A program made the translations under genes and the position numbers. From Balanoglossus misakiensis (taxonomy: Eukaryota > Animalia > Hemichordata), in assembly GCA_040954595.2 (NCBI GenBank), contig CM082591.2, forward strand, positions 10,991,309-11,055,308: a stretch of 64,000 nucleotides of DNA, written 5' to 3'. This document shows, in pieces, positions 23,201 through 57,448 of the stretch; positions within the stretch are counted from its first letter, which is position 1; the number at the start of each line of letters is the position of its first letter. The notes under the pieces are model-generated. The model did not search any database and had not been told where the DNA came from. It saw only the letters and a list, made by a program, of their open reading frames with translations.

Positions 23201-24075
23201 TCATCCATGGCACAAGCATCTCAGCAGGATCTCAGCTGGTGGACATCATTTTCAGTTCCTTGTCCTCTGCAATCAATGAAAACTAATACATTTCTATTTT
23301 AATTACTGTTTTACGACACATTTAAATAACTTTACTTCTGAATGTATTCATTGGACATGGCCATCATAATTGGTACAATCAAGAATTGAATGCTTCACAC
23401 TAATAGATAACATCCAATACCTGTAAGCTTTAAATTTCATTGGCTGTTTTGGATTTCAATGTTTTCAATTGCATACATTTTGTACAGAAACATAGCCATA
23501 AACCTGCATCTTACTTTCTAAAATGACATCTAGACATCTGTAGTGGACTTGCATTCTCATCCATGGCATCATTTAGGTACAGGCATCTCTGCAGGATCTC
23601 AGCTGGTGGACATCATCTTTAGTTCTCTGACCTGTGCAATCAATGAAAACTAATACCGGTACATTTCTATAATAATTACTGTTTTATGAGATGTATAAAT
23701 AAGTTTACTTCTGCATTATATTCCTTAGACATAGCAATGATTGGCACAACCAAGAATCGAATGCTTCACTCATAGATTGCAGCAAAAATCTGTACGCTTT
23801 CTATTTCATTGGCTGTATTAGATCTCAATGTCTTTATTTGAATACATTTTGCACAGAAACATAGCCATGTTTTGAAATAGTGTTCCACAATATAATGCAT
23901 TTTGTACCTTTAGAAGGTGAATCTTACTTTCTGAAATGCCATCCAGGCATCTGTGGAGGGCTTGCATTCTCATCCATGGCATCATTGAGGTACAGGCATC
24001 TCAGCAGGATCTCAGCTGGCGGACATCATCTTCAGTTCCTTCCCCTGTGCAATCAATGAAAATAATACACTTCTA
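17285..24075 (-). repeat. ~420-bp tandem repeat (15 units, ~1.26-1.30-kb trimeric higher-order repeat), each unit with an exon-like cassette on the minus strand
   Basis: cttactttc (minus-strand donor gtaag) at ~17331, 18515, 18929, 19412, 19818, 20232, 20674, 21080, 21494, 21850, 22333, 22739, 23154, 23510 and 23923. Trimer periods of 1303 and 1262 bp differ by one copy of an internal 41-bp minisatellite. Confidence 0.93.
17610..18386. mobile_element. 777-bp non-autonomous PIF/Harbinger-type MITE
   Basis: TIRs ggctgcattcacaaacacctctggagggggg at both ends. TAA duplicated at 17607-17609 and 18387-18389. Sister repeat units show the empty site tacctgTAAgctttcc (e.g. ~19682). Confidence 0.9.
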
Positions 24076-25311
24076 CACTACTGGAAGAATGTAACAGTGC
24101 GCCCTCGCGCGAGGAAATCTGGAGCAAATCGCGACATCTCCTCGAGGACATCGAGTGGGCGTGTATGGTTACACGCGTGAAACTCCAAAGCGCTCGCGAG
24201 AACAAATGTTCAACACGGGAGGGCTGATGCACGGCACTCGCGATTGAGTATGCTCGAAAGATAGAACAAAACCTTGACATGCTGGGCCTCAGGTGCGGGT
24301 TTCTTTTTCGCCCTTACGTTGGAACATTGAGCAATTTTACGTCCATAGACATAATAGGAAGTAGCAAAGTACGCGGAGTTCTGTTCTTGTGTTTGTACTG
24401 CGTTTGCTATGTCCGTCTACTCGAACTACCTCCTACCCCCATGACTCAACACACCATACAACGAACGGTTACTTCGGTACAGTAAATGGAAGTTGTTAAT
24501 GAGAAAAATATAAAAACGAACGTGTGACTTTTTAAGATTCTGTGTTATTTTATGTTGAGGTTTTTTCTTGTGAAACATCAACGTTTGCGACAACGCTAAA
24601 GAAGCGCAAAATTCCCCGGCGGGGGTGAGTGCAATAAATTGATTTTCTTCGGTCGTGTTAACAGCATTGCGCGATCATGAACAGTGAGCACAATGGCTGA
24701 GACGCGGGCGTCACGCATGGAACAATAAAGTGTTTGGGATAAATAATAAACTCAGCGAACACACAATATAATATTTCGTGGTTTTTTTTGGTGGTAATGA
24801 GAACTGCACTGACGAACGGCCTACCGGCTTCTCCGTCACGTTTTCATCATGAGAATAACCCCCTTTCCACTGACCAAATGCATGATGCATGCTGCAAATA
24901 TGTGAACGAACGCACTAGCGCGGAACGCGGAAGTGCTTCGGGTGTATCATTTCGTGTCGTGCAGAAAACTGGCATGTTTTTATACGTCCGGTAGAAATTG
25001 GGAGCACAAGCAAAGCAGAACTCAATAAGTAACAGCTTAACAATCCAAATACCAACAGGTCACAGACGTAACGGCCTCCTGCGTGGGCCTTCACAATAAC
25101 ACGGTCTCTCGATGTGATAGGGGGCGTGGTTATATCCTACCAGACAAAAGTAATGGGACTTATGTCGCGGGAATCACTAGTGATTTCAAGGTGTCAATTC
25201 ACAGCAAACATAGCGGGATTCACGAGTGTTTATGGATACACGCGGAACGTGAAATTAATTTTACATACGGCAGGATGCGATCTGTTATGGGTTGTATTCA
25301 AAACTGGTAAA

Positions 25312-25751
25312 GTTTGTGAAGTCAGTGTGACGAATTGACCGTTTTATGTTGATTTTCGTGTTTGTGAAGTCAGTGTGGAGAATTGACCGTTTTATGTTGT
25401 TGCTTCGAATTTGCGAAGTCAATGTGAAGAATTGGCCGTTTTATGTTGATTTTCGTGTTTGTGAAGTCAGTGTGGAGAATTGACCGTTTTATGTTGTTGC
25501 TTCGAATTTGCGAAGTCAATGTGAAGAATTGGCCGTTTTATGTTGATTTTCGTGTTTGTGAAGTCAGTGTGGAGAATTGACCGTTTTATGTTGATTTTCG
25601 TGTTTGTGAAGTCAGTGTGAAGAATTGACCTTTTATGATGTTGCTATGAATTTGCGAAGTCAGTGTGAAGAATTGGCCGTTTTATGGCCGTTTTATGTTG
25701 AACTTCGATTTCGTGTTTGCGAAGTCAATGTAGAGAATTGATCGTTTTATG
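25312..25751. repeat. 48/49-bp tandem repeat, ~9 copies, near the left end of the giant element
   Basis: Unit gtttgtgaagtcagtgtggagaattgaccgttttatgttgattttcgt alternates with a 49-bp variant, forming 97-bp dimers. Confidence 0.9.
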
Positions 25752-28586
25752 CGGCTAGTTAGACTTTGCGAAACAACGTAACTGCGAAACAACGAAACAT
25801 GACGATACCATTATTAAAATAGGGGCCAGTCATCAAGACGGTGGCGTATTATTTTTTTTAATAAGTTTCCAAATTAAAACGTATGCGAGCCAAGAAAACT
25901 ACAGGTCAGATAAATTGTTTCCTCGGAAATTCAACATTAGAATCAAATTTGGCGTTGGAAACAAACGGCGTGTCGCCAATTCCTGGTCCGGGGACTGGTA
26001 CTAGTGGTAGAGTCGTGTGATGCTACGTGTTTCGGTAAACGTCGAAACACAACGTTTTTTTAAGTTATCGACAGAGTTATATTATTCATTGTGAAAATCG
26101 GCAATGAGAAATGTCGAAACATTGTTAGTGTTTATCTTGTAAGATTATCATATAAATGTCTCAACATGACTTTTTATTGGTAATGTACCGCTATGCTCCA
26201 AACCTCTCTAAAATGAATCGGGAGGAACTTTAAATTACGTGGTTAGTGGATAGATACCTGTACGCAGGGCTAGTGGCAAATCCTCCGTGACGACAGTTGA
26301 CTGTGCACTTCCACAAAAACAACTGCGTCAAATCTCCATCAACTTTTCTGGTATTTTAGCAAGAGAGTTGGATACATTGTCGGCTCATCTGATGAATGCA
26401 AATCATTAGGCAGTGTAAACAACAACAATGTGTCATTTCTTGCTGTTTTTGTCGATGTTGCAGATAACTGTAAAATAAACACCATAATCGTGGAAAACAC
26501 GACCTAGGTCGCCCAACGTCACTACCGTCTTATATACAGGCAAGGGTGGAATCGACATGCCCTGATCTAGGCTCACGGGCCACCTTCAAGGCCCTGAAAA
26601 ATCACCCCATTCACGAGCGAGCGATTAAATTATGCCACCATAGGCACTGAAATTTATCTCACTGACCTAATTTGGGTTTCACTTGTTCTATCGAACAAGT
26701 GGAAAACGTCGATTTCCAAGTCGTACCCAGTCAAATTCAATCACATTTGAACTTCGCGACCGATGTTGCTGGCTATGTTAATACTGCATATTTAAATTGA
26801 CCAATCGGGCGCCCTGTAATGGCTGCCTCGGCCACCCGATTGTTTACTGCTCAACTCGTACGAGTACGTGTAACTGCGTTCAAAATAACGCGAAAAAAGA
26901 AGCAAAACCTTATGAGTCATACAGATAAACGGATACTTCCCACCTCTTTGTCAGAAAAATCTGCCGTTTTACGTCAGAACGTACACTTCCTGGTATTTAA
27001 TCAAGTAGCTGTGTTTTGTTAATTCAGTTCAGTGCATCTAGTACAGAGGAACTGTGTTTAAAAATAAGTATTGGTCAAAACCAGTGGCCGAATTAATAAT
27101 GAATAAAAAGTTTGATCACCATTGAATACTCAAGCTTGCGTAAAACGCGGACGAGATGACGCATGTTTTTGTAAAAGAAAACCTAAACATGAACTTTAAA
27201 TACCATTTTACGGCACACGTGTTATACAACAGTACCGTACACTCCCCACATTACATGTAGTCACCAGAGGGTCCACTCCACGTCGCAAAACGCTGGTTGT
27301 TTTGCGACCTTTTACGACGTCCACCGCAAGTACGTGGAATCACTCTCACCGCTTGCAGTCACTAAACGCCGTCAACCATGTGCATGATACGTTTGTTTTA
27401 ACATCAGACACAGCAACAGAAGTTGTTGCAGAAACTTAACTTTCTTAACAGAAAGCATAGCTAATGCAGTCAGTCAATAACAGAGTCGCAATCGACCTGT
27501 TCTAATAGTGTACCCCGCCGATGCTAGCGTACATGCAGTCTTTCATTTTAAGGCCTATCGATCTCTGTAGAAGTCCCTCAAGCTGGCAAGAGACTGTGGT
27601 CAACGAATCAAGGAGCGCATTGCTATAATCATGTCCGGAATAATTCATCGTCAATAATCCACTCATTAACTACATGTAATCCTGTCGGCAAACTGACTTC
27701 ATTTACACTTCGCCACGAATTTACCTATAGGTGGCTCGAGAGATTCGAAACCAAGAACCACGGGATGGGAATGCATTCTACATTGGCTTGGCTTGGGTGT
27801 CCCTTTAACCACTGTGACTTTAGTAAAATATTAACGTGAAGACTGGACAGGAACAGAAACTAGCGGTACGGTATCCCGACACTCTAACAATGCCTGCACA
27901 AAACACTTTTACGGCATATCGGTAAGAATGAGTACGGTAAAATTTACTACCCCTGTTATCGTCCAGCGATTGCATCGCTGAGGAATAAATTAGCACGTTT
28001 AAATTTGAACATGATAAGTCGCAATTTAATTGAAGTACAATTTCAATGCCGGTCGTAATACGAGTCAAACTTGCTTCCGGGTCAATTAGTGCAGTGTTTT
28101 ACAGTATGTACCCCCATCAAAATTCCAATGGGAGGTATTTTCTCACAATATACAAAGCTTTCTATTGCCAGGATCAGATTGTCTTTTTTTATTTACACTT
28201 TTTTGAGGATGGTTCCCCGCAAAATAAAATAATGCAAATGTCACCAGAATTGAAATTGTATACCAAAGCAATGGACTAACAGTTTTAGAGAAAGACAATT
28301 GCGAATGTTGACAAATGGATGCTGGACAAACAGGTAATTTGATAAGCTTCACATAGCTGGCAGCAGAACTGAAAAGGTCAAAAATTGTGACTTAGTTGTA
28401 CCATTAATCAATGTAGATAGAATACTAAGTTTGCAAAAGCTATTGAATTTTAAAGATTCAGGTAGGCAAAGTTCAAGGTTTCATTAAAAATATTTATTTT
28501 AACAAAAAACAGTGAAGTAAATTTTAAAAACAAAAAAAAATACAAAAAACATTAAACTGAAATGCAAATCAAATCTGTGTGTCTTC

Positions 28587-29009: not shown

Positions 29010-29040
<31 letters not shown>

Positions 29041-31371
29041 GGGTGCATGGATGCGACACATTTTGTGCAATATCTGATACACGGTTTTTGTCTAAGCCTG
29101 AAATATATACTCAAAAAGGAGTCTGTAAGTAGTATGTAAACTCTCTACTTACTCAGCATGCTTTGACGATATCGCTCTCTCTCCGAACTCCCTCGCGTTA
29201 ACCTCCATTATTGTAATAGTTTGTTGGAGCTCTTGGCATTTATTGTCCTCCAACGGCTCCGCCAAGTATTCAACTTCCTGTTATAAAACAATAATGACAA
29301 TATGTGAGTGATACTCAATCTTGCATAACAAAAAGTGTTAATGATCTACCACTAACATGCTCCTTGCATTTAAATTATATTCCCTTTCACTATCATCTCT
29401 TTTGTAGTATTCCATGTTCAGTCACTGGATCCTTTAAAACAAGACATGATATAAACTGAGTGTTCGTTTTGTTTTTATTGCAAGTTAATAACAAAGGTAT
29501 ATAATTGCCAGGTAAAATAACAACAAGAAGTTCCAAAAAAACTCACATTCAGTGCATCCTGCGTAAGCGTCGCAGCTAGCATGAGGCACCCCTCCGCTAT
29601 GTGGTGGGGCTGGTATTGCTGCCGTACATTCATTGACAGCAAGGTTATGTCTGCCAGATACTACAACGAAATGAAAAATTAATCAAGTCATGTATACAGA
29701 CAATTATGCCAACCTACTAACATCTAAGACCGAAAATAAGATTAAAAAGTTTGATGTTGTTGGAAGTTACAGTTACAAAGCTCAAGTTTAGATGAATCTT
29801 ACATTAAGTGTGTATACTTTTCAAGATTGCTTGTTTTATTTTGACTAACTTTATTAATAAAGTGATGTGTCACTTTTTTATCATCTGTCACATCAGACTT
29901 AAATGTTTTCAATCCAAATGTCTTACCTGTGCCACTTCTCTTGTTGTCCGTTTTATTTTGGGATTTAATTCCCATAGACACCCAAGGAAGGTTGTAACAG
30001 GAACTGTTGTTAATTTGAAATTTAGTAATTTCATAATTAACAGTTCCATGTTACAAACCTCCCTTGGGGTAAAGGCATCCGCAGTATAGTCAGAAAATGT
30101 GGATGCTACAAAAACTGGTACTTCCAGAAGTTTGCTGTTATTGAAAGAAAGAAAATACCTTAGCATTATTTAAAAATGTGTGTATAGGGATAAACTGTGT
30201 TTACGCCATCTTGAAGATTTGCAGTGCATTATGGGTCAATTGAGTTCCGGTACGGGGGGGGGGGGGGGTAGCGTCTAAAACCTATCCAATTTTCCAGCTG
30301 TTTTGTCAGATTTTCTTCAAGTAACGTTAGTAGTAGTAGTAGTTACATGAATAAAATCTAACTAAACTGCTGGAAAATGAATATGTTGTAGACGCTACTT
30401 CCCCCCCCCCCCCGTACCGGAACTCAATTGACCCATAATGCACTGCAAATCTTCAAGATGGCGTAAACACAGTTTATCCCTATACATTATTGTAAACAAA
30501 AAAGGCGGGTATTGATTTGTCTGGTGGGGTGCTTCAACTTGGCCAATCCACCATGGGTGTATCCCCTGCCCTATTTTCACTGTTGACTTGTTGACAACCA
30601 TTTTGGTGAGATTTTTGTCTACTTACTAATGAAGATAATCACCTATGTAGACTATGTAATGCATGTAAAAAGGGTGCTGAGCTATGGCAGGTTACAAAAT
30701 AAGCTTTCTGTTGATTTCAAATCATGGATTTAGTTTGAATTTTATTTTGTTGTAGTAATTCAACTGTTTAGGTCATAGAAAAAGACCGAATGTTGATGAT
30801 TTAAGATGAAACTAACTGCCAAGGTACACAATCTTACTGTTACACAACAAAACCAAACACACACAATTAATGAAAGTAAATCACTACAGACTGATGCCTT
30901 ACCTAGCGGTAAACAGGCTTGCCGCAGCAACCAATTGCTTGAGTTCCACATGGAACGCCCGGCACCTTGTTATGAAGCTATCGAAGTACCATATAGCTGT
31001 GTGTACTGTCTCAGGATCAAAATTCAGTTCTGTTGCCACGGCATACATCCAGTCAACGCAGACTGCTCTGTTATTAAGGTCCCTGGATGTCAATTGCGGG
31101 TACATGCTGTACCACACCGGCACACGTTCCTGGTGGAAGAAACAATACCAGTTACACACCATGAATCTTTGTAAACAGTTAAATCCCTTGTAGAGAACCC
31201 CCCCCCCCAAATCACAATGGCAGTTCACAGTTCACTTCAATTCAAAGCTTGAATATTTCGAATGCAGTCCAACTCCAAAACCGTTCCGCAAGCTACTGAA
31301 GTGTAACTAACACATTGAGTGACAAAACGTAACACCTTATTCCTAGTGTTTATCAGTGGCGCAACCCACAT
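28587..31371 (-). CDS. Divergent cyclin (A/B/E-type fold; Cyclin_N plus Cyclin_C), multi-exon, ~243 aa
   Basis: Exons 31129-30903, 30134-29927, 29660-29547, 29277-29153 and 28608-28587 have canonical ag/gt sites and matching phases (0/2/0/0/2). They translate to NRAVCVDWMYAVATELNFDPETVHTAIWYFDSF...QLVAAASLFTASKLLE...YTADAFTPREVCNMELLIMKLLNFKL...YLADITLL...YQPHHIAEGCLMLA, colinear with the cyclin box. Minus-strand AATAAA at ~28493-28498. The first coding exon (31371-31336) and the terminal exon are less certain. Confidence 0.88.
30181..30486. mobile_element. ~300-bp MITE with ~95-bp TIRs in a cyclin intron
   Basis: tatagggataaactgtgtttacgccatcttgaagatttgcagtgcattatgggtcaattgagttccggtacggg...gtagcgtcta is mirrored at ~30389-30486. 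Ends are in a TA/TATA context. Confidence 0.88.
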
Positions 31372-34300
31372 TCGATAACCATTAAGCTGTGCCTGTTGAA
31401 AATCACAACAGGTGTGTTTCAACACTGATTGTTTATTAGTGTCTGGTAATTACAGACTACAAAGACGGTTTATTTCTTGTTTATTCTGTCTTGGATTTAT
31501 CATCAGGTGCGAGTAAAAAGAAAAGCTCGCACTAAAATTAGAACTGAATTAGATCTCACACATCGACGTATCTTGTGTTCTCATTTGGACCATTCCGTCT
31601 CTCTCCCCGTCGAACCTATCCCTAAGTGTACGCCGTACAATCCATGTTTACAATCGACTAGTTGACGCACTGCTCTGATACTCGATTTTATTGCACAATT
31701 GTGCAATCGAACAGACGGGAAATCCCCAACAAAGTGAATGGAAACTGATTGTGCATTCTGTTTGTCGTAATCATGATGAATAATGTAAACATTAAATGGT
31801 TGCTAAACCCCATGACTGTGGTCGAGTATAAGTAAGCTTTTTTCATAATCATTCTCACACTCTAAACTATCCGACCGTTTTCGTTTTTCGCTGAATTTAA
31901 AGGGGGAAACAAGAACACTGTACAAACACAACCGCACAAAACGTCATCATTTGAAAACCTTTCAGCCCTATTAAATCGGACTAATTGGAGCCTAATCAAT
32001 CGGGCAGGGAAATGATTAAATGATATGGGCGTGTTTAAAAAATCGGTTGGCACCGTCACAAAGAGTCTATTTGGTTAAACGTACCTTGGGGAGTAAGTCA
32101 AATAGGTCTTATATTTGGGGATAAATATGCGCTGCTCTCAAATCAATACATTAAGAAAGAAGACTTCATCGATAAAACCACTCACTTCACGGATGGGAAA
32201 ATCGTCATTCAAATATAAAATATAAAGGATATCACGACCTGACTTGAACCATATCAGTCAAACACATGCCACTGTGTTATAGTTTTGATGCAAACACCAT
32301 TTTTCAGTCGTCCGTTGAAATCGTTCTCTTAGGGGATGCCAAAAAGGAATTCCCGAATTACAGCACGAATCAAAACTATCTTTTCACGTTTTCTCCGAAT
32401 ACTTTCCTCTTAAAAGGAATCTGTGTAAATTGTCGACTTACCTCTGTTAACAGAAGATGCTGCACCACACTTTGACGATAATCTGTGTAAATTGTGAGAT
32501 AGGACCATATTTTGTTATCGAGATCTAATAAGCGAACAAAGATTGCTCAATACTCCCGCGGAGACAACCCGAAGATATTCACCCTAAAAGCACTATTTTT
32601 GATAATTTTTTTATTGATCAAGCCTAATTCCCTTATTCTTATAGAGCATTGCTTGTTTCGAGTTGAGAAATATGGTACTTTTTTCACTAACTTACTGTCA
32701 AAAAAACTACAGGAAGAATCTCTTTTGTGTGGCCGATAATCAGCTGATTAAGTGCTTCCTTCTAGTGAAGACAAAACTAATTGATTTTGAGAAACATTAC
32801 TCGCATGGTTTTGTGGATAAATTTGCGACCGTTCTCATACGAACAGAACTCAGAGACTAACAAATCACGGGCGAAACACCACAAACACACAAAAAATAGA
32901 TTCGGTAAGCCTGCTGTCTCGCCATAAGAAATTCCATGCTGTCTATTTTAGCACTTCCGATGGAAATACAAAGAAATAATATTCAGCGATAATAAAGTTC
33001 CCCATAACTTTTGCAACACTCTCTAAGCGTCATGAAAAGCATTCTATCTTGTCCGCATAAATATATCTATCTGTACACTAGTCTCACTCTTCCTATAAAC
33101 TCGTCGTAGAACGAAGAAGTTTCGACTTACCTTTGCTCAAAAAATGGTCCATCGTTGTAAATACGAAATACGAAAAAAATCAAAATATACAGGAAGGAAA
33201 CTAAGGAACTGAGGAAACTTGGCAAAATGTCGAGGGAGTGATTTTTACTGCAAGCAGCTACTGAAACAGTGACCAGTATCGCACGCTTATATACCCTGTG
33301 GTTGACAGACGCGCCGCCGAGGCTATACAAAGGTACACAAATGCAACAAAAGAATGCGGGATATACGAAAGGTGTAAATGCATCAGCCAATAATTTTAGA
33401 TCCCGATTGTTGCATCGGCTTTGTCGTTGTGTTTTTACTAAAATAAACGAAACTAAAATGCCAAAGTTCAAATCACCAAGGTGTGAAGCCAAGGTGTGTA
33501 GATATCGTCCCATTCTCTCCCCTCACGTGCCATTCAGTACAGAAAAATAGCCGTGTGAAACACATGTAATTCCTTTTTTATCGATCCACCTGGCGTCAAT
33601 TAGTCATGGACCTGTATGTCATATAGTCGTGAAACAGTAGTATAGCAAAGGGGCCAAAGTGGTCAGTCAGAATGGGAGAAAAAGATGACAGCCTTTGCCT
33701 TCAAATCTATAATGGGACAGAATTCGCCAAGCGACTAGATGGGCTCCTATACTCAATGTAGTTAAGAAAGGTGATCGGCCGGCATGCGTAACCAAACGGG
33801 GCAGTGCTCGTTCGTCTTCAGTCCTAGTTCTCTAAAAGCGTATAGATTTCGAACAATTTATGGGTACTTCTAACTTTCAACATATTTTTATAATTGTTTT
33901 CTTCACTTTGATGGTTTTAAACCAAAATGAGCACTCGTGTTTAAACTTGGAAAGACTTATTTGGTCTTTAACACTGTGTGATTCTGAAGAAATGTACTGA
34001 TCGTGTGAAAACAAACAACCACCACTTCATTCTCACCGAATCTAGGCGACATCGATTCTGACGCCTTTCGTAGGTGTGAAGCATATAACCATGAGAGATT
34101 TTCTTTTATCTATGATTCATCAGATTTTTTTTTACATCCCACGCGTAACCTTCTATTAAAATGGTTAACATTCCACCAGTAAACTTGGCTTTACGGGGAT
34201 TCATAGTGATGACAGCAGGTTTCAATGTCGCTCTATAAAACACATTCATTTCAACAAAATATATGCCATATCCCCAAACGTTGGTGACACTTTCTTGTTA

Positions 34301-36112: not shown

Positions 36113-37384
36113 ATGACATACGTAACAGAAATTCACCTGACAGAGGCTACTTTAGAGAATTTGTCTAAACAGTATCCATCAAGAAAGGTAGGTACACTTT
36201 TAAATTTTAATTCTTTATCTTCGATACATATGTTTCCTATCAGAAAATTGACATCTACAGCACGCAACTGATCATGAAACTTATCGACGCCCAAACCATG
36301 GAGGTACTAGAGAGAAGGCCTTCTCTCTAGTACCTCCATGCCCAAACTAAGTTTTCTACATAACTTAAAATGATTTAGGAAAGTATCTATGCAATACATA
36401 TAATTCACGATGTCAACAGCACGGCGATTACTACTAGAGCTCACAACTTTTTTTTTTTCAATTTCAGCTTACACTGCGCCAACTAGAGAAATTTTCTTTC
36501 TCGGCGTCTATGGCTATAATGGTATCCGGGCGACTCAAAGGGGTCGCCATCAATGATAACACACCACTAATTGTGATCCCGTCCAGGAAGATTCCATATA
36601 CATGTAGTGTTGACCTGGCAGTGTTTCTTCAAGGTAATGTTTAATTTCCCTAAAATCGGCCACAGTTGAAAGCGCGCGGTTTCCCTCGGTTTACTAATAA
36701 TAGTACACACTGAATGATAGGGGAAACGCGACATAGCTGTGAACCACCCGAGTGGACGTACATAGTGGCCGTTTTTTACAGCAATTTCAACAATTTCAGC
36801 GCTGTTTCAATGTTCCCACCATGCATCGCTTCCTTTCCTCAAATATATTTCTTCCATCAACAATAGTAACATTTAAACATGTCTGGCCAGTATCAGGTCG
36901 CATTGGAGCTGGTCAACATACGGGTGATCGCGCGCTTGGAGATAAGGCGAAATGGGCGATTACCGGAAGGGCCGATACGTGCATTATTGTTGCCCTTTTA
37001 AAACCTTTGCGTGTTTGACCTGATTTTTTAATCGTTTGTGAATTATCGCTTGTGCAGAAGGATAAATTTATACGTGCGAAGCACAGAAGTTTGGCAAATG
37101 CCGTCAGCTGAGGAACGTGATTAGCGATATTCCTAAAAGTGGCCGAGAATAGGCACAGAGGTTGTGCTAGTAGCTATACATGTACAGCTTGACCCACGGC
37201 CGCTTTTTGACACACACACTCTCTCTCTCTCTCTCTCTCTGATTTTTAAGTTTCTATGTGTTTGGCTGCGTTTATAGACAAACATAACATTTCAGTATTT
37301 TTCATTACAGGTAGCACAGTCCCTCAAGTAAGACGATCGAGAGTCTCCCATTGTTTGGTTGATGAACGAGGGGATAAGCTGTAG
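36113..37384 (+). CDS. Predicted three-exon orphan gene, 104 aa, unknown function
   Basis: Exons 36113-36187 (ATG...AAG|gtaggt), 36468-36633 (poly-T ttcag|...G|gtaatg) and 37311-37384 (ttcattacag|...TAG) join in frame without stops: MTYVTEIHLTEATLENLSKQYPSRKLTLRQLEKFSFSASMAIMVSGRLKGVAINDNTPLIVIPSRKIPYTCSVDLAVFLQGSTVPQVRRSRVSHCLVDERGDKL. No recognised homology. Confidence 0.5.
36297..36340. mobile_element. 44-bp perfect palindromic mini-insertion with 7-bp direct flanking repeat
   Basis: catggaggtactagagagaaggccttctctctagtacctccatg is flanked by cccaaac on both sides. Confidence 0.8.
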
Positions 37385-38269
37385 GATGCGGGTTTCGGTC
37401 ACGTGACTATCTGACAGTAGCGTTTTTCCCTTGGAAGCAAGCGGCAGTCGCTCTACTATGATGATTTTCCCGATATTTTAGTTATGTTTCAAGTATTCAT
37501 TCGACATTTTTAAAGACAATTTTCAACTGTGGATTGTGAGCATACACATTTTGCGGGCGTTTCTGGGATCGCTTTAATTTTACCTCTTTTTCGGTGTGTT
37601 TTTCTCGATAACTTTTTCCAATATATAAGGTGTCAGATAGCTATATCAAAAATTAACTTTTTATTATACTTGTGCAGAAATCGGTCATTTGCATCGTTGT
37701 TTAATTTCACCCTGACACAAATGGAGGCCTAATGAATGTAAATAACGTTGCTTCAAAATGAAATTTGCGATTTTTCATTCCCTTGCATTGGTTTTGGTGA
37801 TTTTAAGTGTTCATACTTCTTCAAGTTTGTCGTGTTTTTACCCTTCAAAAATGTTTTTTTTTTTCAAATTCGATAGCCACTGTCAATCTTCTAGTTGAAT
37901 AAAACCTTATAATCATGTTAAAGTAAAGAAAAGTCTTAAGTTATTCTGTGTACGTTAGGTGTACAACCGCAGTTTTACTTGGCGATATGGATGTTCGCTA
38001 GATTTTTACTGATACATGAACCAGTAGACATTACTGTAGGGTGTGGGCATCTCAGTTACACTAGTCGGTATTTATAACTTGCTGTTCCGCCGAAAAACAC
38101 TTGAAATTAAAGGATGTTTACACGTTGCTGCTTCCTCATTTGGTCGCCATGTAGGTCGTATGGCCTGGTCTTGGTGGACGGTAACCGAAACCAGAAACCC
38201 AGCCCCGAATTCGAAACTCAACTAAAGTACCAGAAACTCGCCCAAAGCATGCAAATACACGAAAAGTCT

Positions 38270-39130
38270 AGTAAAACCTGGCAAAACCGACCCCTGTGTA
38301 AACCGACTTCCTGTGAAAATCGACCGATCTGTTTAATCCCGAAAATTTCCCATTGACGCCCATGGTAAAAGTCACTCTGAATACCGACCACTGTCTACTT
38401 CGAACACCGACCGCGTTGGTCGGTCCCACCCCTCAAAATCATCCTGAATAGTCCGACCGATCACTTTATTGTAAAGGTTGAAATCCTGTCTTTGATCAAA
38501 AATTACCGCAACGATGTGCTAATTTTGGTTTTCCTGTCTTCCGAACAATAGTCAAAGCGACGGTAACACTTCGTTAGCAATTTACTGATAAGCCTTCCTG
38601 GTGGCGAGGTGTGAATCTCTTTTTGTAAACAATACAGTGTACAACCAACAGTGCGGCCACGCAGTGTTGACAAGGGCGGCGATTTATCAAACAGTACTGC
38701 AGAAGCGATGTTTCCTAAACAATCATCTCTCGACAGTTTTATGAAGAAAAAAAGACTGGATGTTGTTTTCTACAACTTATCAGTAGTTTTCAGGAAATCG
38801 AATGCCCCAGATTCTGCCGATGCGATTTTAATAATACGATGTACGTCTTTCTGTTTACCAACTCAGCCCGCGAACGAACTTGAATTTACTTTTTTTTATT
38901 TTCAACAATTTTCAGAAATTACACTATACAGAAGTTTTTAATTACCTTTTATTTGAAATATACATGAAATACGAATGTACAACGTGTATCTCGTGCGTGT
39001 GTCTGCTGTGCACTGTGTGTATGAGATCGGGGTCAAAGGGTTCATGGGGGGGGGGGGGGGCACGCCCACTCTGAGTAAACCGACCAGAATGTGTGGTCCG
39101 AGGTGAGGTCGGTTTTGCCAGTTTTGGGAA
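38270..39130. mobile_element. Degenerate non-autonomous TIR element (~860 bp)
   Basis: ctggcaaaaccgacc (38278-38292) is inverted at 39107-39121, with repeated internal accgacc motifs. Extreme termini are eroded and there is no clear TSD. Confidence 0.5.
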
Positions 39131-39496
39131 TATTGATAAAGACAAAAAAATCATAGCCGAATGAGTATACCCCGGTATATACAATGCCGGAAATGCACGT
39201 TGAGAGGAGACAGAATGTCGCTAGATCGTCTTAGACCTGGTTTGTTTGCATTTCCCAGGCCCAATTTTAACACCTTCTTGTGCTCTGTAGATACTGGCCT
39301 TGCACCCTGCCGGCCTTGATACTTCGCTTCAGTTTCGTTTAATTAATTTCCGCACTGTAACATGATCGTCACCATGCAGACACCCCCCCTCCCATTGAAC
39401 GGGATCAGTAACTGATCACTAAATGGCTTGCTTAGTCGTGTGTTAATTTTTGTTGAAATGTACATGACACATAAAAGAACAACAGTGATGTTAACC

Positions 39497-39574
39497 CTGT
39501 GTACAGTTCTGTGTGTTCCCGGCGTTAAACGGTGGGGGCCGTGTAACGCCGGGAACACACAGACCTGTACGCAG
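39497..39574. other. 78-nt near-perfect hairpin (~37-bp stem, 4-nt loop)
   Basis: ctgtgtacagttctgtgtgttcccggcgttaaacggt-gggg-gccgtgtaacgccgggaacacacagacctgtacgcag; two mismatches and two G-U pairs. Confidence 0.8.
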
Positions 39575-40218
39575 AGCTATACACAGGGCTACTACAGTGA
39601 TGTCAACTCCATGCACGTTGATTTGGTGTTGATAAACAAATGAGGCTTTGACGCTTACGTACAAGAAAATTTCTGAGTGTCCCATTTCCACGCCCGTTTG
39701 GCCCAGAATTCATTATTGGTTTACGGCCCATCAGTAATGGGCGATGAAATGCGTGTAACGTTGCTTTTTGTTATGGTTTATTATGTGTTTTTTAGTATTG
39801 AACACATTTAAGGGCCGTAGATAATTCAAACACGCGCATGATTAACGCAATTTATTCGTTAGGGCGAAGGATGTTTAACCGTATTTTTACACGGTTACCG
39901 CTAAAGATTCACACCTTCTAATTCTTGTACTCAATAGATACCGGCCTTGTATTCTCTTCCAAGCGTTCGCTGAGCATTGAGAAGAAAAAAAATGTACCGA
40001 GTGATGGGACAACGGAGTTGAAGTGTATTTCACAGTTTCGGAACGTGGAAACAAACTCGCCAAATATTATTACCGACTCGCGTTTTCACAAATTCCTCAT
40101 ACGCTGTTTCTTTTTTAAACGCATTTAACTAAGGACCCAACTGAGGATCAGGTACATTTTATTATGTGTTAGTTTTGTTACATAGATACATGCAAGTTAA
40201 TCGTCAAACGTAATAAAC

Positions 40219-42200
40219 GTCATTTGCCGACACTTGTAACGTCTGACTGTTGGAACATATCAAATTTTAGGTTCTGCGCAATGGAAAACAAAGAAATAAA
40301 CTGCATAAATCTGAAAGAATTGACTGAAAATATGTGAGATCGGGAATTGTTAGAGATACACGTAAGTTACAAGTATTAAATAAACGTAATTTGCCGAATA
40401 TCGGACTGAACAAACGAATAGAACTCTCGGTGAGCTGTTCAATATGCGTTTAAACTGTACCAGACAAATGGCCATGAACCTCCCCATGACCTCGCGATGA
40501 CTGTCGTGTCACTTACATGTACAGTGTATGTGGACTACATGTACATTACATTTCATGAACAATGACGGTTTTGGCTAGGTCATATCACTATAGCCGCTTG
40601 TCTGAAAAAATCTCGTATCATTTGACCGCTAATGTAATGCCATGTAATTGTATTTTTTTTGCAGTGTGTCGTGCACTTATACAAGTAGTTAGAAAAAAGC
40701 CCACATAGTGCTGGTAATTCGCGAGGCCACGCAAGTATCACGCGTTTAACACGCCACAGATATCGATGTCAGATCTCTCATCAAATGTGAATATTATTTG
40801 GGGCCTGTATGGGCTGAATTATATGCGAGTGTTCGTCAAAAAATTAATCGCTACTCCCATGTACTATTAAGATCTATGATATTGTCTGAAATAATCTCTC
40901 ATCGACAATTAAAGCATCCGTTTGAATTTTGCGAAATAAAAAAAATGGGTGGCCATGTCCTGACTTTGAACCTCATCATTATACATGTATACTCAACTGT
41001 ATAAAATTAAATATCGGACGTCGACTCAACAAACTTTTTCACGGAATGCGTCATTTGCCGACACTTACGTCTGACTGTTTGAACATATCAAAGTTTAGGT
41101 TCTGCGCACTGGAAAACAAAGAAATATACTGTTTGAAAATATTATGTTTTTGGTAGGCAGCAATGACACACGATTGAATAAACTGTACAAATTTCAATAT
41201 CGGACTGAACAAACGAATAGAACTCTCGGTGAGCTGTTCAATATGCGTTTTTATCATACATGCAACGCCTGTATTTAACACTTTCTATTGTTCTCGCCCC
41301 GAAGATATTTTACGGTATTTCACAATGTGAAAATATCGCGTCTCGGCGCGACAGTTCGCTGCGCGCGCGAGCGACACAAGGGGCTTAGGACTCTAGTGGA
41401 AAGGGGTGTTGTAAAATTCGGTTATTAGAAGCTGTAATAAAGTTTTCAAAGCTGGCGGTTTTGTCATGTTGAATGCATCATTATTAGTTCTTTGAAATTC
41501 TCAATGCAAAATAATTGTTAACATGATAATTTGAAAGAGAACGTAGACAATTTTATTTAGAATGCGGATGTACCCATCGTAATGAAAGCTGCCAACCCCC
41601 TTAAAATGATACTACGGCCCACACGTCATACGTCACAACATGGCTAATGCCGTGATCCCAGCGCCCGGTTCAAATTTGAAATTGTTTTTCTCGGCGCATT
41701 TTCGCAAATCGTACTGTTTTATAGGTAGGCATGTATGATAAAGGGTTTATTACACGAATTTTGGTCGATAACGCGACGCATTATCGACCAAAATTCGTGT
41801 AATAACCCCTAAAAACTGTACCAGACATATGGCCATGAACCTCCAGATGACCCCGCGATGATTGTCGTGTCACTTAGGCTAAAACAAAAAAATATGTTCT
41901 TTTCCGATTACCCGAACTACCCTAATTTTAAACCGACGACCCTAAACTTTATAGAGCTTTGTAAACCCGGAAGTAAAAATAATGATGTCAAATACACAAA
42001 ATTTATGAAAATATGGCGAAATCGCGCGCATCACGCAAGAGTATGACGTCAGTCTACTACACTTCGGCGGCCAGAGAAATAACAAAATTGCAAAATAAAA
42101 AAAATTCCCTACCTACCTACCTACCTACCTACCTACCTACCCGCTTGCCTGAAAAAAATCGCGTATTATTTGACCGCGAATGTAATGTCATGTAATTGTT
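40219..42200. repeat. Internal direct duplication (~420 bp) whose second copy is interrupted by insertions
   Basis: Copy 1 spans ~40219-40650. Copy 2 is in pieces at ~41049-41251, ~41813-41876 and ~42142-42200 (shared cgtcatttgccgacactt, aatatcggactgaacaaacgaatagaactctcggtgagc, aaactgtaccagaca, ccgcttg.ctgaaaaaa). Confidence 0.8.
41251..41812 (+). mobile_element. ~560-bp insertion with 13-bp inverted repeats plus a terminal palindrome (Helentron/HINE-like architecture)
   Basis: ttatcatacatgc (41251) and gcatgtatgataa (ending 41741) are followed by a ~69-bp palindrome at 41742-41810. The insertion is absent from the paralogous copy at ~40451 and sits at a T-run. Confidence 0.65.
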
Positions 42201-43085: not shown

Positions 43086-44108
43086 ATGAACAGGATGGGA
43101 AGAATTGCTATTGAGCATCGACAGAAGATAGTGGAGTGGCATAAGTCTGGACACAAGATCGTTGAAATTGTTGAATTACTCAGGAAAGATGGAGTCAACA
43201 CCAGCAGAAATGCCGTAAGTCTGTTTCTTCAAAAGTATAGAAAAACTGGCTCTGTTCTTGACAAACGTAGAAGTGGGCGACCACGGAAAGCAACGATGGA
43301 GGTGAAAAATTTTATCAATGAAAAAATGGATGCTGACCGTGAACTTATATCGCGTCACCTGAGAGAAGAAATTCGTTTGGAGTTCGAAGTTAATATGAAT
43401 GAACGGACTGTCCGTAAAGCTCGATTGGAAATGGGCTGGATAAGGTCTCGAACCAAGTATGGCCATATGGTGAGAGAGCCTAACCGTGAAAAGCGTATGG
43501 AATGGTGTCTACACATGATGTATAATGAGGAAACATTCGATGACGTTATATGGACAGATGAGACAACTGTTGTCATGGAAACCTACGGAAACTACCAATA
43601 CCGTAAAGAAGGAGAGCCCAACCCTCGAAAACAAAAAGCTAAGCATCCTGGAAAATTGAACGTTTGGGGTTCGATTACTAGAAAGGGGGCTGGAAATCTA
43701 GTGATTTTTGACGGAACCTTAAATCAAAGATTTTACACAGAGTCAATTTTACGCGACACTGTACTCCCACTGAAGAATGCATATTTTCCTAATGGTGGAC
43801 GTTTTCAACAAGATTCTGCACCAGCGCACCGCTCAAGGCTTGCCATGGATTTCCTTCGAGAAAACCAGATAACGCGATTCCCTTTCCCTCCGGAGTCACC
43901 AGACCTTAACCCTATTGAAAAGGTTTGGAACTGTATGAAATACTACATCAAAAATAAGGCCAAACCAAGAAACATGGAAGAACTGCAGAACTGTGTTCTT
44001 AGATATTGGCAAAGTGTTGACATGAACATGTGTAATTACTTAATCGACATGCTATATACTGTAATGCCACGAGTTATAGAATTGGAGGGTCATCCTTCGG
44101 GCTATTAG
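43086..44108 (+). CDS. Tc1-family DD34E transposase, intact 340-aa ORF
   Basis: N-terminal HTH region, RRSGRPRK linker, catalytic WTDET ... FQQDSAPAH ... SPDLNPIEKVW with 34 residues between the second D and E, and an NVWGSIT motif. Confidence 0.96.
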   Translation: MNRMGRIAIEHRQKIVEWHKSGHKIVEIVELLRKDGVNTSRNAVSLFLQKYRKTGSVLDKRRSGRPRKATMEVKNFINEKMDADRELISRHLREEIRLEFEVNMNERTVRKARLEMGWIRSRTKYGHMVREPNREKRMEWCLHMMYNEETFDDVIWTDETTVVMETYGNYQYRKEGEPNPRKQKAKHPGKLNVWGSITRKGAGNLVIFDGTLNQRFYTESILRDTVLPLKNAYFPNGGRFQQDSAPAHRSRLAMDFLRENQITRFPFPPESPDLNPIEKVWNCMKYYIKNKAKPRNMEELQNCVLRYWQSVDMNMCNYLIDMLYTVMPRVIELEGHPSGY

Positions 44109-47100
44109 AAACCGATTTACAGACGTTTTGCCTATGGTGCAGGTAACTCTTACTCCCAGGAGCAGCAGTGGGTCCGGTGGTCTGCCTGGCCCCGTGTCTG
44201 TCAGTCAGGACATTGCTGGGCAAATTCCCGACGGATGGTTATGTGCTATGTACACAATGAGATGATCCAGTAAATTTTGAACACCTAATCACTCATTTTT
44301 TCAAAGTGAAAATGCAGCTATTTGAGACACTTTTGTTTTATCATTTTGTCAAACACACATTGTTGATCCTCAGACTTTTCTAATGCTGTGTTTTTGTGAG
44401 TTTTCATTGAGTGGAAAGCCATTTGTCCCAGTTATAAAGCTGCACTCACTGGGCTTGCAGCTATTGGCCTCGAAGTAGTGAACTGATAATCTGGCGCACT
44501 CACGCCAAAGCGGACAATTTCAGAAGTAAAAGCATCATTCGGTCTGTTATATTCCTAAGTTTTAGATGAAACATCCATTGCCAAACAAAGATCCCAGAAT
44601 TTACGGTACCATTGCAAACAGAGACTGGCCTTTTCAGTGTTAAGTGGCCATTACAGCTGTTACGTAAAATGCTGATGATAAGCGCTAACATAGGTCAATT
44701 TACGAGACAAGGCAATTTTAGCCGTAATACTATAACAAACACACGTCGCCAACTCTTATCCTCGTCCAATGATATAACACCCAAATGCAAATTTAACTCC
44801 AAAAGTGGCAAATTTCGAAAGCAAACCAAATGCTCTAACTATCTGTATCTATTTCTTATATCTTCATTTACTGTTGTCGTATGATTTTGTAGAAGAGACA
44901 TGAAATAAATTATAATTATATTTCTATGTTAAACTGAAGTCTCGAACGTGTTGTGTACATGACGTCACATATAAACATGCACTGACCCTGTTCTTGTTGG
45001 TAAGATTGAGCAAGCTTCGGTACTTCGACGGAAACGAAAATGTTTGCAAGACAATAACTCAACAACAGAGAGGCTCACGTCATTCCCGTTTTGTGTGTTA
45101 ACGGTTAGAAATCTTAACGACGAACTCCAGTTTTGTGTAAAACAAATGACCACAGACAAAGAAAGGTCACGATGTTATAATCATGATAGCAAAATCATTT
45201 TGTGCGTCAACGCGTTGACAAAACTTCCCAAAAAGTCGTGACTGTTTAATATTTGGCATTCATGGTGTCTTGAATTGAGTCGCCCGCTCGCGCAGCTGAC
45301 ACAATAACTTCTTGTGTCACTGCTCTTTGTTTGTTTGTTTGTTTGTTTGTTTGTTTGTTTCCCCGAAAAGAACGCCTAATTCGCCTGTACCCGCGGTGGG
45401 TGCTTTGATACCGTGTATTAGCTGATGAGGATATTGCTTGTTGCCAGATAGCTGACTTCATCAAATCAGTTGTATGTAAACAAAATTTGTCACCAATCTG
45501 TTCTATATACAGATCGCACCGAGCACTCAGACTGAGCGCTCCGTGCGATCTGTGGTCCTATATGGCTAATGTACAACATTGTTATATAACATGTAAGTTA
45601 CGCAACGTGACTAAAAGATAGAATCGTCACTGACACCATAGACCCTAGGGTCTATCTGACACAAAACATACACAGTGACTAGTGTTATACGAGTTGAGCA
45701 GAATTACATAAATCTGACGTGATTTTTTTCTGTTTTAAAGCAAGAATTAAACTTCTCTCTTAAAATCCAGTTCACATCCGCTATTCTTCTTTGCGCTGTC
45801 CTTTTTTCCTGTGCACAACACCTGAGATCACAACGCATGCTCTTTAAAATTCGTCATCAAATACGTCATTTATTTCACACGTTTGTTAATTAATGCCTGT
45901 CATTTTCCCGACAGTTGAAAAGTTGAGAATCTGAAGTAAAAAACGTGATTATTTGAATACACTTCAAACTATTGTACTGATCTTAAACATTTGAAGATTC
46001 GCTGTTGTTCCGATGTGTCATTGATGCGGTGCGGGAAACCTCGTAACATTTATGACACGGGCAATCACGTCTCAGTTTGATCGGTTCGACTGCCTATTAC
46101 ATCTACGTAGCCAGCCAAACCGATCGGCCAAGCATCGCTCCAGTCGCAAAACACTGTATATATTCTCCGCACTACAGTTTTTTTTCTGTCCGCCTCTCCC
46201 ATATTTACTGTAAGGATAGGTGTCGGTCATTCCATTGATCTGAAATAAACGTATTTGAACCATTCGGTAACATTGAGGCCACAGGAGCTGCGATATTTTG
46301 CATTATTTCAAACCAAAGTTCGGTATTCAAGTAAATATGCGTACTGAAGGACGAGTATTGAACTATTGGAGAGGTTTAGTTACACCTTAAAACGTCTGAC
46401 CGAAGGAAGTGGCGTACGCGTACTATGCGTAGCGACGCGTGAATTTTGCGGTTTAGTTGTGGTTTTTGGATGCTGGCTACATCACAATTGCACCTTCAGA
46501 TATCAATCGCTCAAATTAAGAGAGAATATCGAGCATTTCGGAAAAAATGTTACACGTAATCATGATTACACTAGAAGAGTCGTTTGCCGTTCCGAACGTC
46601 TGCTCCATACACGTACGCGACGTGTGGTTATCACGTGACGACGACGCTAAATCTTTATTAAAAGTTCAGTTCCGTTTTGTGTTCACGGAGTACTGCAACT
46701 CGTACGCCAACGAATGCATCTGTAAAACTGTGGTTTCTCACGCAAATAAAAAAAAACATTTAGTTCGAGAGCTTTCGGTTTCTGCAGTGTCAACTTCACA
46801 CTACGAGGTCTTGCTGGGTTGTGGCGGAAATATTGATGTCGCCAAGGCGGAAAATTCAGCAGTTGGCCAAGACAGGGTGTATTTTATAATTAGTACGAAT
46901 TGGGTGGACGTATCATTTGCGCCAGCAAAGGTAAAACCACTGAAACGAACGAAAGGCAACCAGTCAGTGAGTCCACTATCTGAACAGTCCTGAACATTTC
47001 CGGAATAAAGAAAGTAGTGTTGATAACTTGCGTCTTTGCCATTATCCCATATAATAGCAATGTTTATTCGGAAGATAAACAATGTTACGTAAGGAAGTTT

Positions 47101-47644: not shown

Positions 47645-50110
47645 ATGAAAACCAGAAGACAACTTCTTAAAGGTGAGTAATTTTTTAACCTGACTTTTAA
47701 TGCGTACATAAATGGCCACGATGCCCTCAATTAATGTACCATGGGCACTTGATCAAAATTGAGTGTTTCTTATGTCGTCTAATTGACGGGTGTATTTCCA
47801 TTTCCTACAGCCGCTGATTTGGTTCTTGTCAAATTTATTGTTGACAAGAAGACGGCAATTGTGCCAAGGCAACGAATCGTCTCAGGGAATATCGCTGTTG
47901 GGGGCAAAGTTACCGTGAGATGGCATAACAAAGAATTTCACGATGCGCTTGTAATGATGGAATCAGGTAAGCAAGGTCACGTTTATGCGTAAAATTATCA
48001 GAAGTGTACATTTTTGAATGACCAGTTCTGATTAGGTGGAACCCATAACACATGAAATGTCAGTACCGACCAATACTCATGAAGCATATTTTTCTTTAAA
48101 TTACAGTTGACAAAATGAGATATCATGTATCAATTCAGGCAATACACTTGTCTTTGTCTGATCTGCATCCATGGTCTGATAAACAGGAAAACAGTCCAAG
48201 TTACAATGAATATACCGTAGGGGCATTTTCTTAAACGTGCCTTATCTCGCATTATTTGTATTTTGATTTAGACGACAGAAGCGCATTGGAGAGATGGGAC
48301 ATCGAAGAACACAGTCACCAAGATTTGCAGGACAAAATGGACCGGCAAACAAGAAGAAAAGGGGTAGGAAGAAAGCGACAAGCTGACAACGCCCAACAAA
48401 CACAGTCACAGACCAAGAAAACAAGAGTGGTTGCCAGTGGCCGTCCAAAAACAAAAAAGGTAGAGTTTTGACTCGTTTTGCAAAATACATGTGCTACAGT
48501 GAAGTATTTTTTGCATTATTTGTACATGTACATGTAGTTCTGTCTAGAAGTACGGAATGCACATAAACACTACACAAGGCTCGTCGGTGTTGTGCATGGC
48601 GAATATAAGACATTACAAGGGAAATTGGCAAGAATTTATCAACTCTGTTGTTCGTGTTTTGACCCAAACACTTTAAAATGTTGTCCCTTCGCACTGAAAT
48701 TTGCACAACGGAAACGGTAGGCATAAAATCGTTGATAAAATCAAGTGTTTTCTCGGGCATCCCAACTTATACGGGCAAACTGGGAATATCATTTGTGTTT
48801 TTAAAATTCCTGTCGCAGTGGAAGATTTGCTGCTATTATTTGTCACGCCTTAAACACATAAAATTGGTGTGAATAATTTTCAACTTTCGAACTTTGTCAC
48901 CATTGGGAATAACATTCAACTGTTTTCGTCACAGTTTAGTTAGGACATAGACTGTCTATGGTTAGGACTTCGTCCATAGACTCTAGGGTCTATGCATTGG
49001 CTAATTACTTACCAGTCAACCTGTTAAACAGAATGCAGTTTAGTTTCAAATACACAATGAGGCTTTATTCATTGTTTGTACCCCTTTAGTCACAGTTTTC
49101 TATAATATACTGACCACTGACTAAAAAGTTACTTTTCCTGTTCACGTTTTGCCGGAAATTTATGACAATTTTTTCAAATAAGCTTAATTTGTGTTTACGA
49201 TTTTAAACAGGGAGAAACGACAGTTCGCACGAGGACCGAATTGTTGCCTCAAGCCACATCTAGTCCGTCAACATCACCACAAGCAGGGCCATCAAGTACA
49301 ACGAGAAGCAGTGACATAAATGTACGGTCAGTAACAGTGATGCCGAGACCATCTCCACTAAGACGTCTTCACATTCACGTCCACACCCCATCTTCACAGA
49401 CTCCAACAACGCCTGAACGGAACACAGAACCGCTCACCCCCTTGCCTTCCAGTCCACCATCATCAATCTCGCCGAACCCTGCAAGATCTGTGATCAGTAG
49501 AAGACAGGCTGATGTCACTGGTGCTCTAATGAAATTCATTGAGGACCAGGGACAAAGGAATGAGAGGGTAATAAATGCAGTCTTGTCTTTAACGGAAAAT
49601 GTAAACAAAGTCGTCGCGAAAGTGGAGGTCATGTTTGACAAGATTACAAACATGCAAAATACTGACACCGCTCCGGGGGGAGGCAGTAACAGCCCAGGCA
49701 CACGACCACCAAGTGATGAGGGTTCACGCGATCATTCAAGCAGCTTGGAAAACACGTTCAATGAAGGCAGTAGATTTAACCTGTCTGATAGCAAGCTGCT
49801 TGAAATTAAAACAACGTCAAATTCACGGGCAAACTTTGCAGCCTCTCTAAACAAAGTAATCTTCACGGAGCAAGAAAGACGCACACAAAATGCAACTGGT
49901 CGACAGGGTAAAGGGATGTTTGACCCCGAAAAACTAAAATTCATAAAAGAACAAGTATTCAGACATTTTCCAGCTACCCCCCGTGAAGTTCATTTTTTTT
50001 GGAAACAATGTTTGGATGCTATTCATGAGGTCAACCGCCGCCCTATCAAAAGTAGAAGCAGAAATGAAAATCACATCGACCAGACACCATTACACGTGCA
50101 GGCTCCATAA
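47645..50110 (+). CDS. BEN-domain protein, four coding exons, 423 aa
   Basis: Exons 47645-47672, 47811-47966, 48272-48459 and 49211-50110 have canonical splice sites and matching phases (1/1/0). The C-terminal SRANFAASLNKVIFTEQER...NATGRQGKGMFDPEKLKFIKEQVFRHFP...WKQCLDAIHEVNRR fits a BEN domain. It is preceded by a small beta-rich N-terminal domain, a basic NLS-like stretch, an S/P/T-rich linker and a coiled-coil-like segment. AATAAA at 50282. Confidence 0.88.
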
Positions 50111-53100: not shown

Positions 53101-53445
53101 GTGGCCGCCGCGGCGTCACAAACGCATTTTGCCTTCGTATTGTAACCGTGAAAGTAATGCCGTCGCTATTTCCAAGGTGCAAAGGAGACTTCAGAGGCTG
53201 ATAAAATGAAACGCAGTGATAAAAAAAGTGCATAGCGTCGGGGACTGGAAACTATGCTGAAACGTGCACACGCGAGAACGGAGATCAACGTAAAACCCTC
53301 CAGTGTTCACTCGGGATGACAACGCGATTCGGACACTGTGCGTCACGGGAGGCCACTCGATATCATCGCGAGGTAAACGCGCGGCGCCCTGGATTTCCAC
53401 GGGGGGAAAACGCAACACACGCAAGGTTACTTTCTTCCAGTAGTG

Positions 53446-53642
53446 TATTTTAAATATTGTGTTACCAGACATGTATATAACTTTACTTCTGCATTTATTC
53501 ATTAGACATAGCAATCATTGGTACAACCAAGAATCGAATGTTTCACTTATTGATTTCATCCAATACCTGTAAGCTTTCAATTTCATTTGCTGTATTGGAT
53601 CTCAATGTTTTCATTTGAAAACATTTCACAGAGAAACATAGT
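53446..53642 (-). repeat. Remainder of the ~420-bp repeat unit interrupted at 24075
   Basis: tattttaaatattgtgttaccagacatg...ctttacttctgcatttattcattagacatagc...aatacctgtaagcttt...gaaacatag is colinear with the units at 17.3-24 kb. Confidence 0.92.

Positions 53643-55438: not shown

Positions 55439-55478
<40 letters not shown>

Positions 55479-57399: not shown

Positions 57400-57448
<49 letters not shown>

Follow-up and report, generated by a model that had tools for sequence, protein, structure and literature searches.

Introduction

Tc1/mariner elements are textbook one-gene transposons of 1-3 kb, and their efficiency drops with size. In the available part of PMC7325037, Tc1 elements have one open reading frame (ORF) and an average length of ~1.3 kb, and the TBE/Tec elements of ciliates are described as DD34E members of the IS630-Tc1-mariner (ITm) superfamily with three ORFs. 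Transposons that exceed 10-30 kb, carry further genes and contain nested insertions, namely the giant KDZ, EnSpm and Sola-1 elements of Ectocarpus and Teratorn of fish, are described in the accessible parts of PMC12477816 and PMC6431247 and belong to other transposase superfamilies. This study concerns an insertion of 29,370 bp in a stretch of 64,000 nt from the hemichordate Balanoglossus misakiensis (assembly GCA_040954595.2, contig CM082591.2, positions 10,991,309-11,055,308, forward strand); the whole stretch is called the window. The insertion is probably a giant Tc1-like element that carries an intact DD34E transposase together with a predicted BEN-domain gene and a predicted cyclin gene.

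The locus resembles the Tc1 family, as represented by Sleeping Beauty (PDB 5cr4), in its DD34E triad, paired-type N-terminus, GRPR linker, short terminal inverted repeats (TIRs) and TA duplication. The features of the ITm superfamily are present, with a DDE/D transposase that has an N-terminal DNA-binding domain, TIRs and a TA duplication, the last seen at one site. Whereas canonical Tc1 elements have one ORF in ~1.3 kb, at least in the portion of PMC7325037 that was available, this element is 29.4 kb long, has at least three genes and encodes a transposase of a separate clade. Because the superfamily features are there and the one-ORF, ~1.3-kb build is not, the element is classed as a Tc1-like variant and not as a canonical member. 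An earlier note on this DNA, made from the letters, had described an element oversized tenfold or more; at 29,370 bp it is ~twenty-fold larger than a canonical Tc1 element.

The TBE/Tec elements share the DD34E triad and the three-ORF build but differ in their zinc-finger and recombinase ORFs, in the ~700-bp TIRs of Tec and in their ciliate hosts, and the excerpt of PMC7325037 mentions neither BEN nor cyclin for them; the element has no zinc-finger or recombinase ORF and no long TIRs. Animal CACTA/CMC elements (ENS1_Cis and CMC-NA, in the accessible part of PMC6004678) resemble it in CAC...GTG ends and a 2-bp duplication, but no CACTA transposase was found in the window element, which has a DD34E transposase instead. 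TLEWI of bivalves is Tc1-like, and introns, as in some relatives of the window transposase (metagenome loci L004 and L007), are a further likeness. However, TLEWI is DD36E and without TIRs (10.1101/656579, in the part available), whereas the window transposase is DD34E and intronless, and an identity with TLEWI was rejected on the DD36E spacing and the lack of TIRs. No literature description of a Tc1 element with a BEN or cyclin gene was found, although an entry in Repbase, subscription papers or supplements is possible. Tc1, mariner and cyclin are absent from the accessible main text of the giant-transposon review PMC6431247, cyclin, BEN, Mariner and Tc1 are absent from the main text of PMC12730594, and BEN appears in PMC5704228 in the reference list only.

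Insertion site and ends of the element

The element lies within a host satellite array and is bounded as follows.

17334..24073: host satellite array with a ~415-bp unit, the insertion target; the unit continues from 53448 for ~190 bp
24074..24075: left TA target-site duplication; a single TA stands at the matching place in sister satellite units
24076..24095, + strand: left TIR (CACTACTGG...); the next ~130 bp are CGCG-rich and show weak inverted similarity
53426..53445, - strand: right TIR, matching the left at 19/20 bases
53446..53447: right TA target-site duplication

The element itself spans 24076-53445 between TA at 24074-75 and TA at 53446-47, and its left terminus reads TA followed by CACTACTG. 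When the two flanks are joined with one TA, they align end to end to sister satellite units at 83-90%, and six satellite units read through the insertion site uninterrupted. This bears out the earlier claim that a host repeat unit is interrupted at TA and that its sister units supply the empty site. The 19/20 identity of the TIRs also stood as claimed, and a TA-anchored match of this quality would arise by chance ~0.0015 times per 64-kb window. Weak inverted similarity extends for ~130 bp beyond the TIRs with a score of 36, a value reached by none of 1000 dinucleotide shuffles. The observed/expected (o/e) ratio of CpG is 1.03 in the element and 0.3 in both flanks, and the terminal 500 bp contain 11 CGCG as against 0.56 per 250 bp in the interior. 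The locus is an insertion at TA with duplication of the target, bounded by TIRs and carrying an intact catalytic triad.

Read-derived contigs were available from three runs (X1, X2 and X3) of one sample in one study, and the best of these runs may be the source of the window. The left junction is crossed with 0 differences by contigs of X1 (24046-24780) and X2 (24046-24676) and the right junction by a contig of X1 (51029-53475), each of these contigs including 30 letters of flank, one below the threshold for bridging. In other contigs, left-flank-like letters stand directly ahead of 53446, as expected of empty satellite units. The contigs of X3 cover repeat-like stretches only. Across 13 long pieces of X1, 17 of 17,179 letters differ from the window, which suggests that a second, near-identical version of the element probably exists in the sample, in another haplotype or individual.

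The transposase and its relatives

43086..44108, + strand: Tc1-like transposase, 340 aa, with a paired/helix-turn-helix N-terminus, GRPRK and D158-D243-E278 (DD34E); intronless and stop-free

The intact DD34E transposase claimed in the earlier note was confirmed as an open frame of 340 aa with D158, D243 and E278 in place and a DDE spacing of 34, and its match to Pfam DDE_3 exceeds the cut-off. In the PDB, the transposase matches Sleeping Beauty alone (E 1e-21). Identity is 35-45% to the best database relatives and 24-30% to named Tc1 proteins. A quick, midpoint-rooted tree of 44 rows, whose references did not include mariner, pogo, TRT or L31, places the window in a group of 27 rows that stands apart from the 7 named Tc1 rows (Shimodaira-Hasegawa-like approximate likelihood ratio test, 100). 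The gene lies inside one 2.7-kb contig, and its read depth equals that of the BEN gene and the right end; read depth served as a locator of high-copy parts, with bounds from coarse bins, and not as a measure of copy number. Judged from the intact ORF alone, the element may be autonomous.

No credible inner ends were found for the transposase gene. One TA-anchored inverted pair around it (15/16, at 42422 and 48537) was considered as its own ends and rejected; it consists of a self-complementary TACATG repeat, and an element with these ends would cut through the BEN gene.

Relatives come from scans of 2/64 parts of a metagenome set and 7/64 parts of a genome set, and the clade is sampled at 13 metagenome loci and on an animal-like contig, G001:C4. 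The left ends of four small relatives (L003, L005, L006 and L008) read TA followed by CAGTA(C/T)TG upstream of the transposase, and pairwise similarity among these four upstream of their transposases begins at the terminal TA. The window's end is like theirs at 6-7 of 8 bases. Because the ends of the element resemble those of the clade, and because none that are credible were found around the gene itself, the encoded transposase would be the one that moves the element. The Tc1-like assignment made in the earlier note gained support from the same two observations. No CACTA or viral domain was found in a Pfam scan of 163 of the 167 ORFs of at least 55 aa, shorter exons lying outside the scan; the four ORFs left out overlap known genes in other frames. 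A Teratorn-like viral fusion was rejected, with no viral gene among the scanned ORFs. Viral contigs gave distant IS630-like matches only and no BEN, and their 13 exact matches to the 16-base end are at about chance level by a rough estimate.

A second feature of the relatives is found downstream of the transposase.

L001:2241, L002:2722, L003:1516, L004:3851, L007:4828 and L008:4569: identical canonical histone stem-loop with a purine-rich downstream box, 20-90 nt past the transposase stop

This histone 3' stem-loop follows the transposase stop in six of the 13 clade loci, and the Rfam Histone3 cut-off is reached in two of the 13. No such stem-loop was found after any of the three genes of the window. 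The histone-type mRNA ends of the relatives are consistent with selection on cell-cycle timing.

The predicted BEN-domain gene

47645..50110, + strand: predicted BEN-domain gene, 424 aa, four exons (47645-47672, 47811-47966, 48272-48459, 49211-50110); C-terminal BEN domain, nearest BEND3 among solved structures

The models of this gene and of the cyclin gene both translate free of stops from GT-AG exons. The BEN domain of the window falls just short of the Pfam cut-off (E 2e-4), while a three-sequence BEN profile reaches BEND3 at E 1e-8 and BANP at 0.008. For a structural model with a mean predicted local distance difference test score of 70, Foldseek listed BEN domains throughout its top rows, though not one at E 0.001 or better. 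The last BEN exon gave no match among 3039 candidates.

BEN genes also stand beside transposases of the clade elsewhere. At L007, a BEN gene whose Pfam match is above the cut-off lies head-to-head with the clade transposase and is 37% identical to the BEN domain of the window; similarity between the N-terminal BEN exons of the two is weak and was equalled in 4 of 1000 shuffles. L030 has the same head-to-head arrangement, with a BEN match at E 2e-9 to a two-sequence profile. G001:C4 (L127, L233-L238) is a 932-kb contig in a prokaryotic assembly, G001, which was the best of 80 rows from prokaryotic genomes, the other rows being weak. With its LTR-retrotransposon, P-element-like, Tc1-like and BEN genes, the contig looks like mis-binned animal DNA, as its LTR and P-element content suggests. 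The 4.3-Mb assembly has two Pfam BEN matches, both on this contig, at distances of 0.3 and 6.1 kb from clade transposases. A third transposase place is flanked by homologues of the second BEN gene. Since clade transposases stand beside BEN genes at L007, at L030 and on G001:C4, BEN is likely the lineage's own conserved second gene and the cyclin is the likely captured cargo. The earlier note had listed BEN among the cargo; the gene is indeed present and predicted to be spliced and intact, but it is better read as a lineage gene.

No element ends could be defined for the L007, L030 and G001:C4 elements. Repeats of other kinds were seen there: the contig ends of L007 (72-218 and 4892-5043) form a direct, non-inverted repeat of ~150 bp at 70% identity, L030 has a 25-bp inverted repeat (5755-5779 and 6024-6048) at the 5' ends of its back-to-back BEN and transposase genes, and on G001:C4 one transposase and a BEN-like gene lie between long inverted repeats with a spacing of ~27 kb (785295-812286).

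The predicted cyclin gene

29149..33152, - strand: predicted cyclin gene, 247 aa, six exons (33152-33131, 32482-32442, 31129-30903, 30134-29927, 29660-29547, 29277-29149); cyclin-A/B-like, without an N-terminal extension
30187..30482: TA-flanked miniature inverted-repeat transposable element (MITE) in cyclin intron 3, with perfect inverted arms and poly-G/poly-C tracts; high copy in reads and missing from a related cyclin copy

The cyclin ATG is closely preceded by an in-frame stop, and a TATA-like box lies ~140 nt further upstream. The best solved match of the predicted protein is cyclin A2 (E 4e-5), and its residues 8-195 align to the retrieved full-length cyclins, from residue 73-350 of the three longer ones. 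Cyclin A2 residues K266 and E295, taken here to contact the cyclin-dependent kinase (CDK), are conserved in the predicted protein, E295 inside the alignment and K266 by ungapped extension. A cyclin box with this conserved K and E corresponds to the sequence pattern of Cdk-activating (A/B type) cyclins. No RxxL or KEN motif was found in the protein. Identity to database cyclins is 28-47% over short stretches in the best 12 matches and 25-38% over longer alignments, a cyclin exon gave no match among 141 longer proteins, and a protein atlas search with the exon returned generic Cyclin_N clusters.

For the cyclin gene and for the BEN gene alike, diverged copies occur in the sample. Related cyclin copies in the reads have other intron content, and several of the nested repeats, including the MITE of intron 3, are missing from related copies. 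CpG o/e is 0.49 over the 3' half of the cyclin gene (28200-31300) and near 1 in the remaining element, which is consistent with host origin of this part or with gene-body methylation.

Discussion

The explanation favoured here, and regarded as probable, is that the insertion is a giant Tc1-like (DD34E) element that mobilised itself into a TA, with BEN as a long-kept helper and a captured, predicted cyclin that would push the host toward replication. The TA insertion with its duplication, TIRs and intact triad is the part of this course of events that is displayed at the locus. The encoded transposase would recognise these ends, and the BEN protein would bind the CGCG-rich subterminal DNA and, with 29 kb between the two ends, help to pair them or to keep them open. 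The BEN domain of BANP binds CGCG (PMC10206803, in the part available). The weakest step is that of the cyclin, which would bind host CDK1/2, would evade N-terminal destruction signals for want of an N-terminal extension, and would bias excision to S/G2; this step is proposed tentatively, with judgement leaning somewhat against it. In S/G2, sister-chromatid repair would restore the donor copy and so turn cut-and-paste transposition into a net gain. The idea that cut-and-paste elements multiply when their transposition is coupled to S phase is long-standing, and some DNA viruses carry a cyclin of their own that drives host cells into S phase. Nested insertions, visible in part, would have enlarged the element further. 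A wider generalisation, in which an animal lineage of Tc1-like elements times its jumping to replication, the small members through the histone stem-loop and the giant ones through a cyclin, with BEN for the distant ends, is unlikely and is offered as speculation.

Several observations weigh against the favoured explanation. The earlier note had predicted multiple loci with identical ends, and this prediction was not borne out in the one available sample, in which no second insertion site with these ends was seen and the listed end contigs of X1 and X2 lead only into the window's own flanks. The window transposase is the basal, long-branched and most divergent row of its clade, and the rejected inverted pair at 42422/48537 outscores 30 shuffles. 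As for BEN, L003 resembles a 1.57-kb single-gene element without it, no significant BEN match was present at 10 of the 13 metagenome clade loci, most of them short-flanked, and a BEN-like frame picked by eye at L010 was rejected as it scored like shuffles. On G001:C4, the second BEN match is separated from the clade transposase by a P-element-like transposase, and this second BEN gene may belong to another element. The window's BEN domain is nearer to BEND3 than to BANP, and the ends of the small relatives hold 1-3 CGCG per 250 bp, that is, no enrichment, both of which count against binding of CGCG. The MRAIL patch of the cyclin reads NRAVC, and no cyclin was found beside any relative in the clade.

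It is distinctly unlikely, in our judgement, that a two-gene Tc1-like element swallowed host DNA once, so that the cyclin, like most of the interior, is a neutral passenger that has yet to decay and the element is possibly immobile. The single site with these ends, the lack of a cyclin beside any relative, the host-like CpG depletion in the 3' half of the cyclin gene and the large amount of low-copy non-coding DNA and nested repeats would all suit such a history. However, the cyclin is far from database cyclins at the identities given above and yet open over six exons, and diverged copies of it are present in the reads.

The earlier note also raised the alternative of a non-autonomous CACTA/CMC element. 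Such an element, mobilised by a CACTA transposase encoded elsewhere, with the Tc1-like transposase and BEN as a passenger cassette and the cyclin as another passenger, is considered very unlikely. The duplicated dinucleotide is TA, small members of the clade to which the transposase belongs have matching ends, the cassette has no credible inner TIRs, and the check for CACTA transposase domains suggested in the earlier note found none in the scanned ORFs. The alternative is weakened by these results but still has points in its favour, which are at the same time points against a Tc1-like element. The ends begin CACTA, CAC...GTG termini with a 2-3-bp duplication are equally a CACTA/CMC feature, and animal CACTA elements with such ends and 2-bp duplications are described in the accessible part of PMC6004678. 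Only a single target site has been seen, at which TA could be chance. Giant EnSpm elements of Ectocarpus with extra genes and dead transposases offer a parallel (PMC12477816, in the part available). On subterminal repeat arrays, which CACTA/CMC elements have at both ends, the picture is mixed: tandem arrays are absent from the ends, the inverted similarity there is weak, and a 48-bp array is found on the left side alone, 1.2 kb in from the end.

An assembly artefact that placed an unrelated block in the satellite is next to negligible despite the satellite-rich surroundings and the lack of a long read across the whole element, as the TA duplication is exact, TIRs are present and contigs cross the left junction with 0 differences (X1, X2) and also the right (X1).

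If the giant Tc1-like element is real, it would, as a natural member of 29 kb whose spliced genes are intact, raise the size range of the superfamily ~twentyfold and show carriage of whole genes in an animal. The transposase and its candidate helper BEN would be a test pair for the delivery of large cargo, and the element-borne cyclin together with the histone-type mRNA ends of the relatives makes the idea of S-phase coupling testable.

Other features of the window

The remaining features of the insert are listed below.

25312..25772: tandem array, 48/97 bp
25602..26869: nested high-copy repeat(s), bounds from depth bins
36113..37383, + strand: possible orphan gene, weak; a 104-aa three-exon model is open
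37014..42085: stretch with many nested high-copy repeats and a partial internal duplication (40218-40660 vs 41049-42208)
46119..46900: nested high-copy repeat, bounds from depth bins

The earlier note had counted at least two, and probably three, spliced non-transposase genes. The BEN and cyclin gene models hold up, being open over GT-AG exons, but the third, the orphan gene, is weak; its four-exon model is broken, and the single orphan exon that was searched gave no family and no usable lead in the atlas. Nested high-copy repeats, which the earlier note had missed, make up ~6-7 kb of the insert, as estimated from the coarse depth bins. Rfam gave three matches on the element, all of them hairpins far under the cut-off. 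Short near-perfect hairpins of 44-59 bp stand at 36297-36340, 39508-39563, 41747-41805 and 45509-45553, and the first of these has a duplicated CCCAAA flank and is missing from a related copy in X2.

Outside the element, window positions 1-11735 hold a 132-bp satellite in 89 copies with higher-order structure, which ends in a 58-nt inverted copy (11734-11791). On the other side, a degenerate (ATC)n microsatellite of ~3 kb with extreme GC skew occupies 54800-57700 and is followed by a 34-bp tandem array at 59238-60015.

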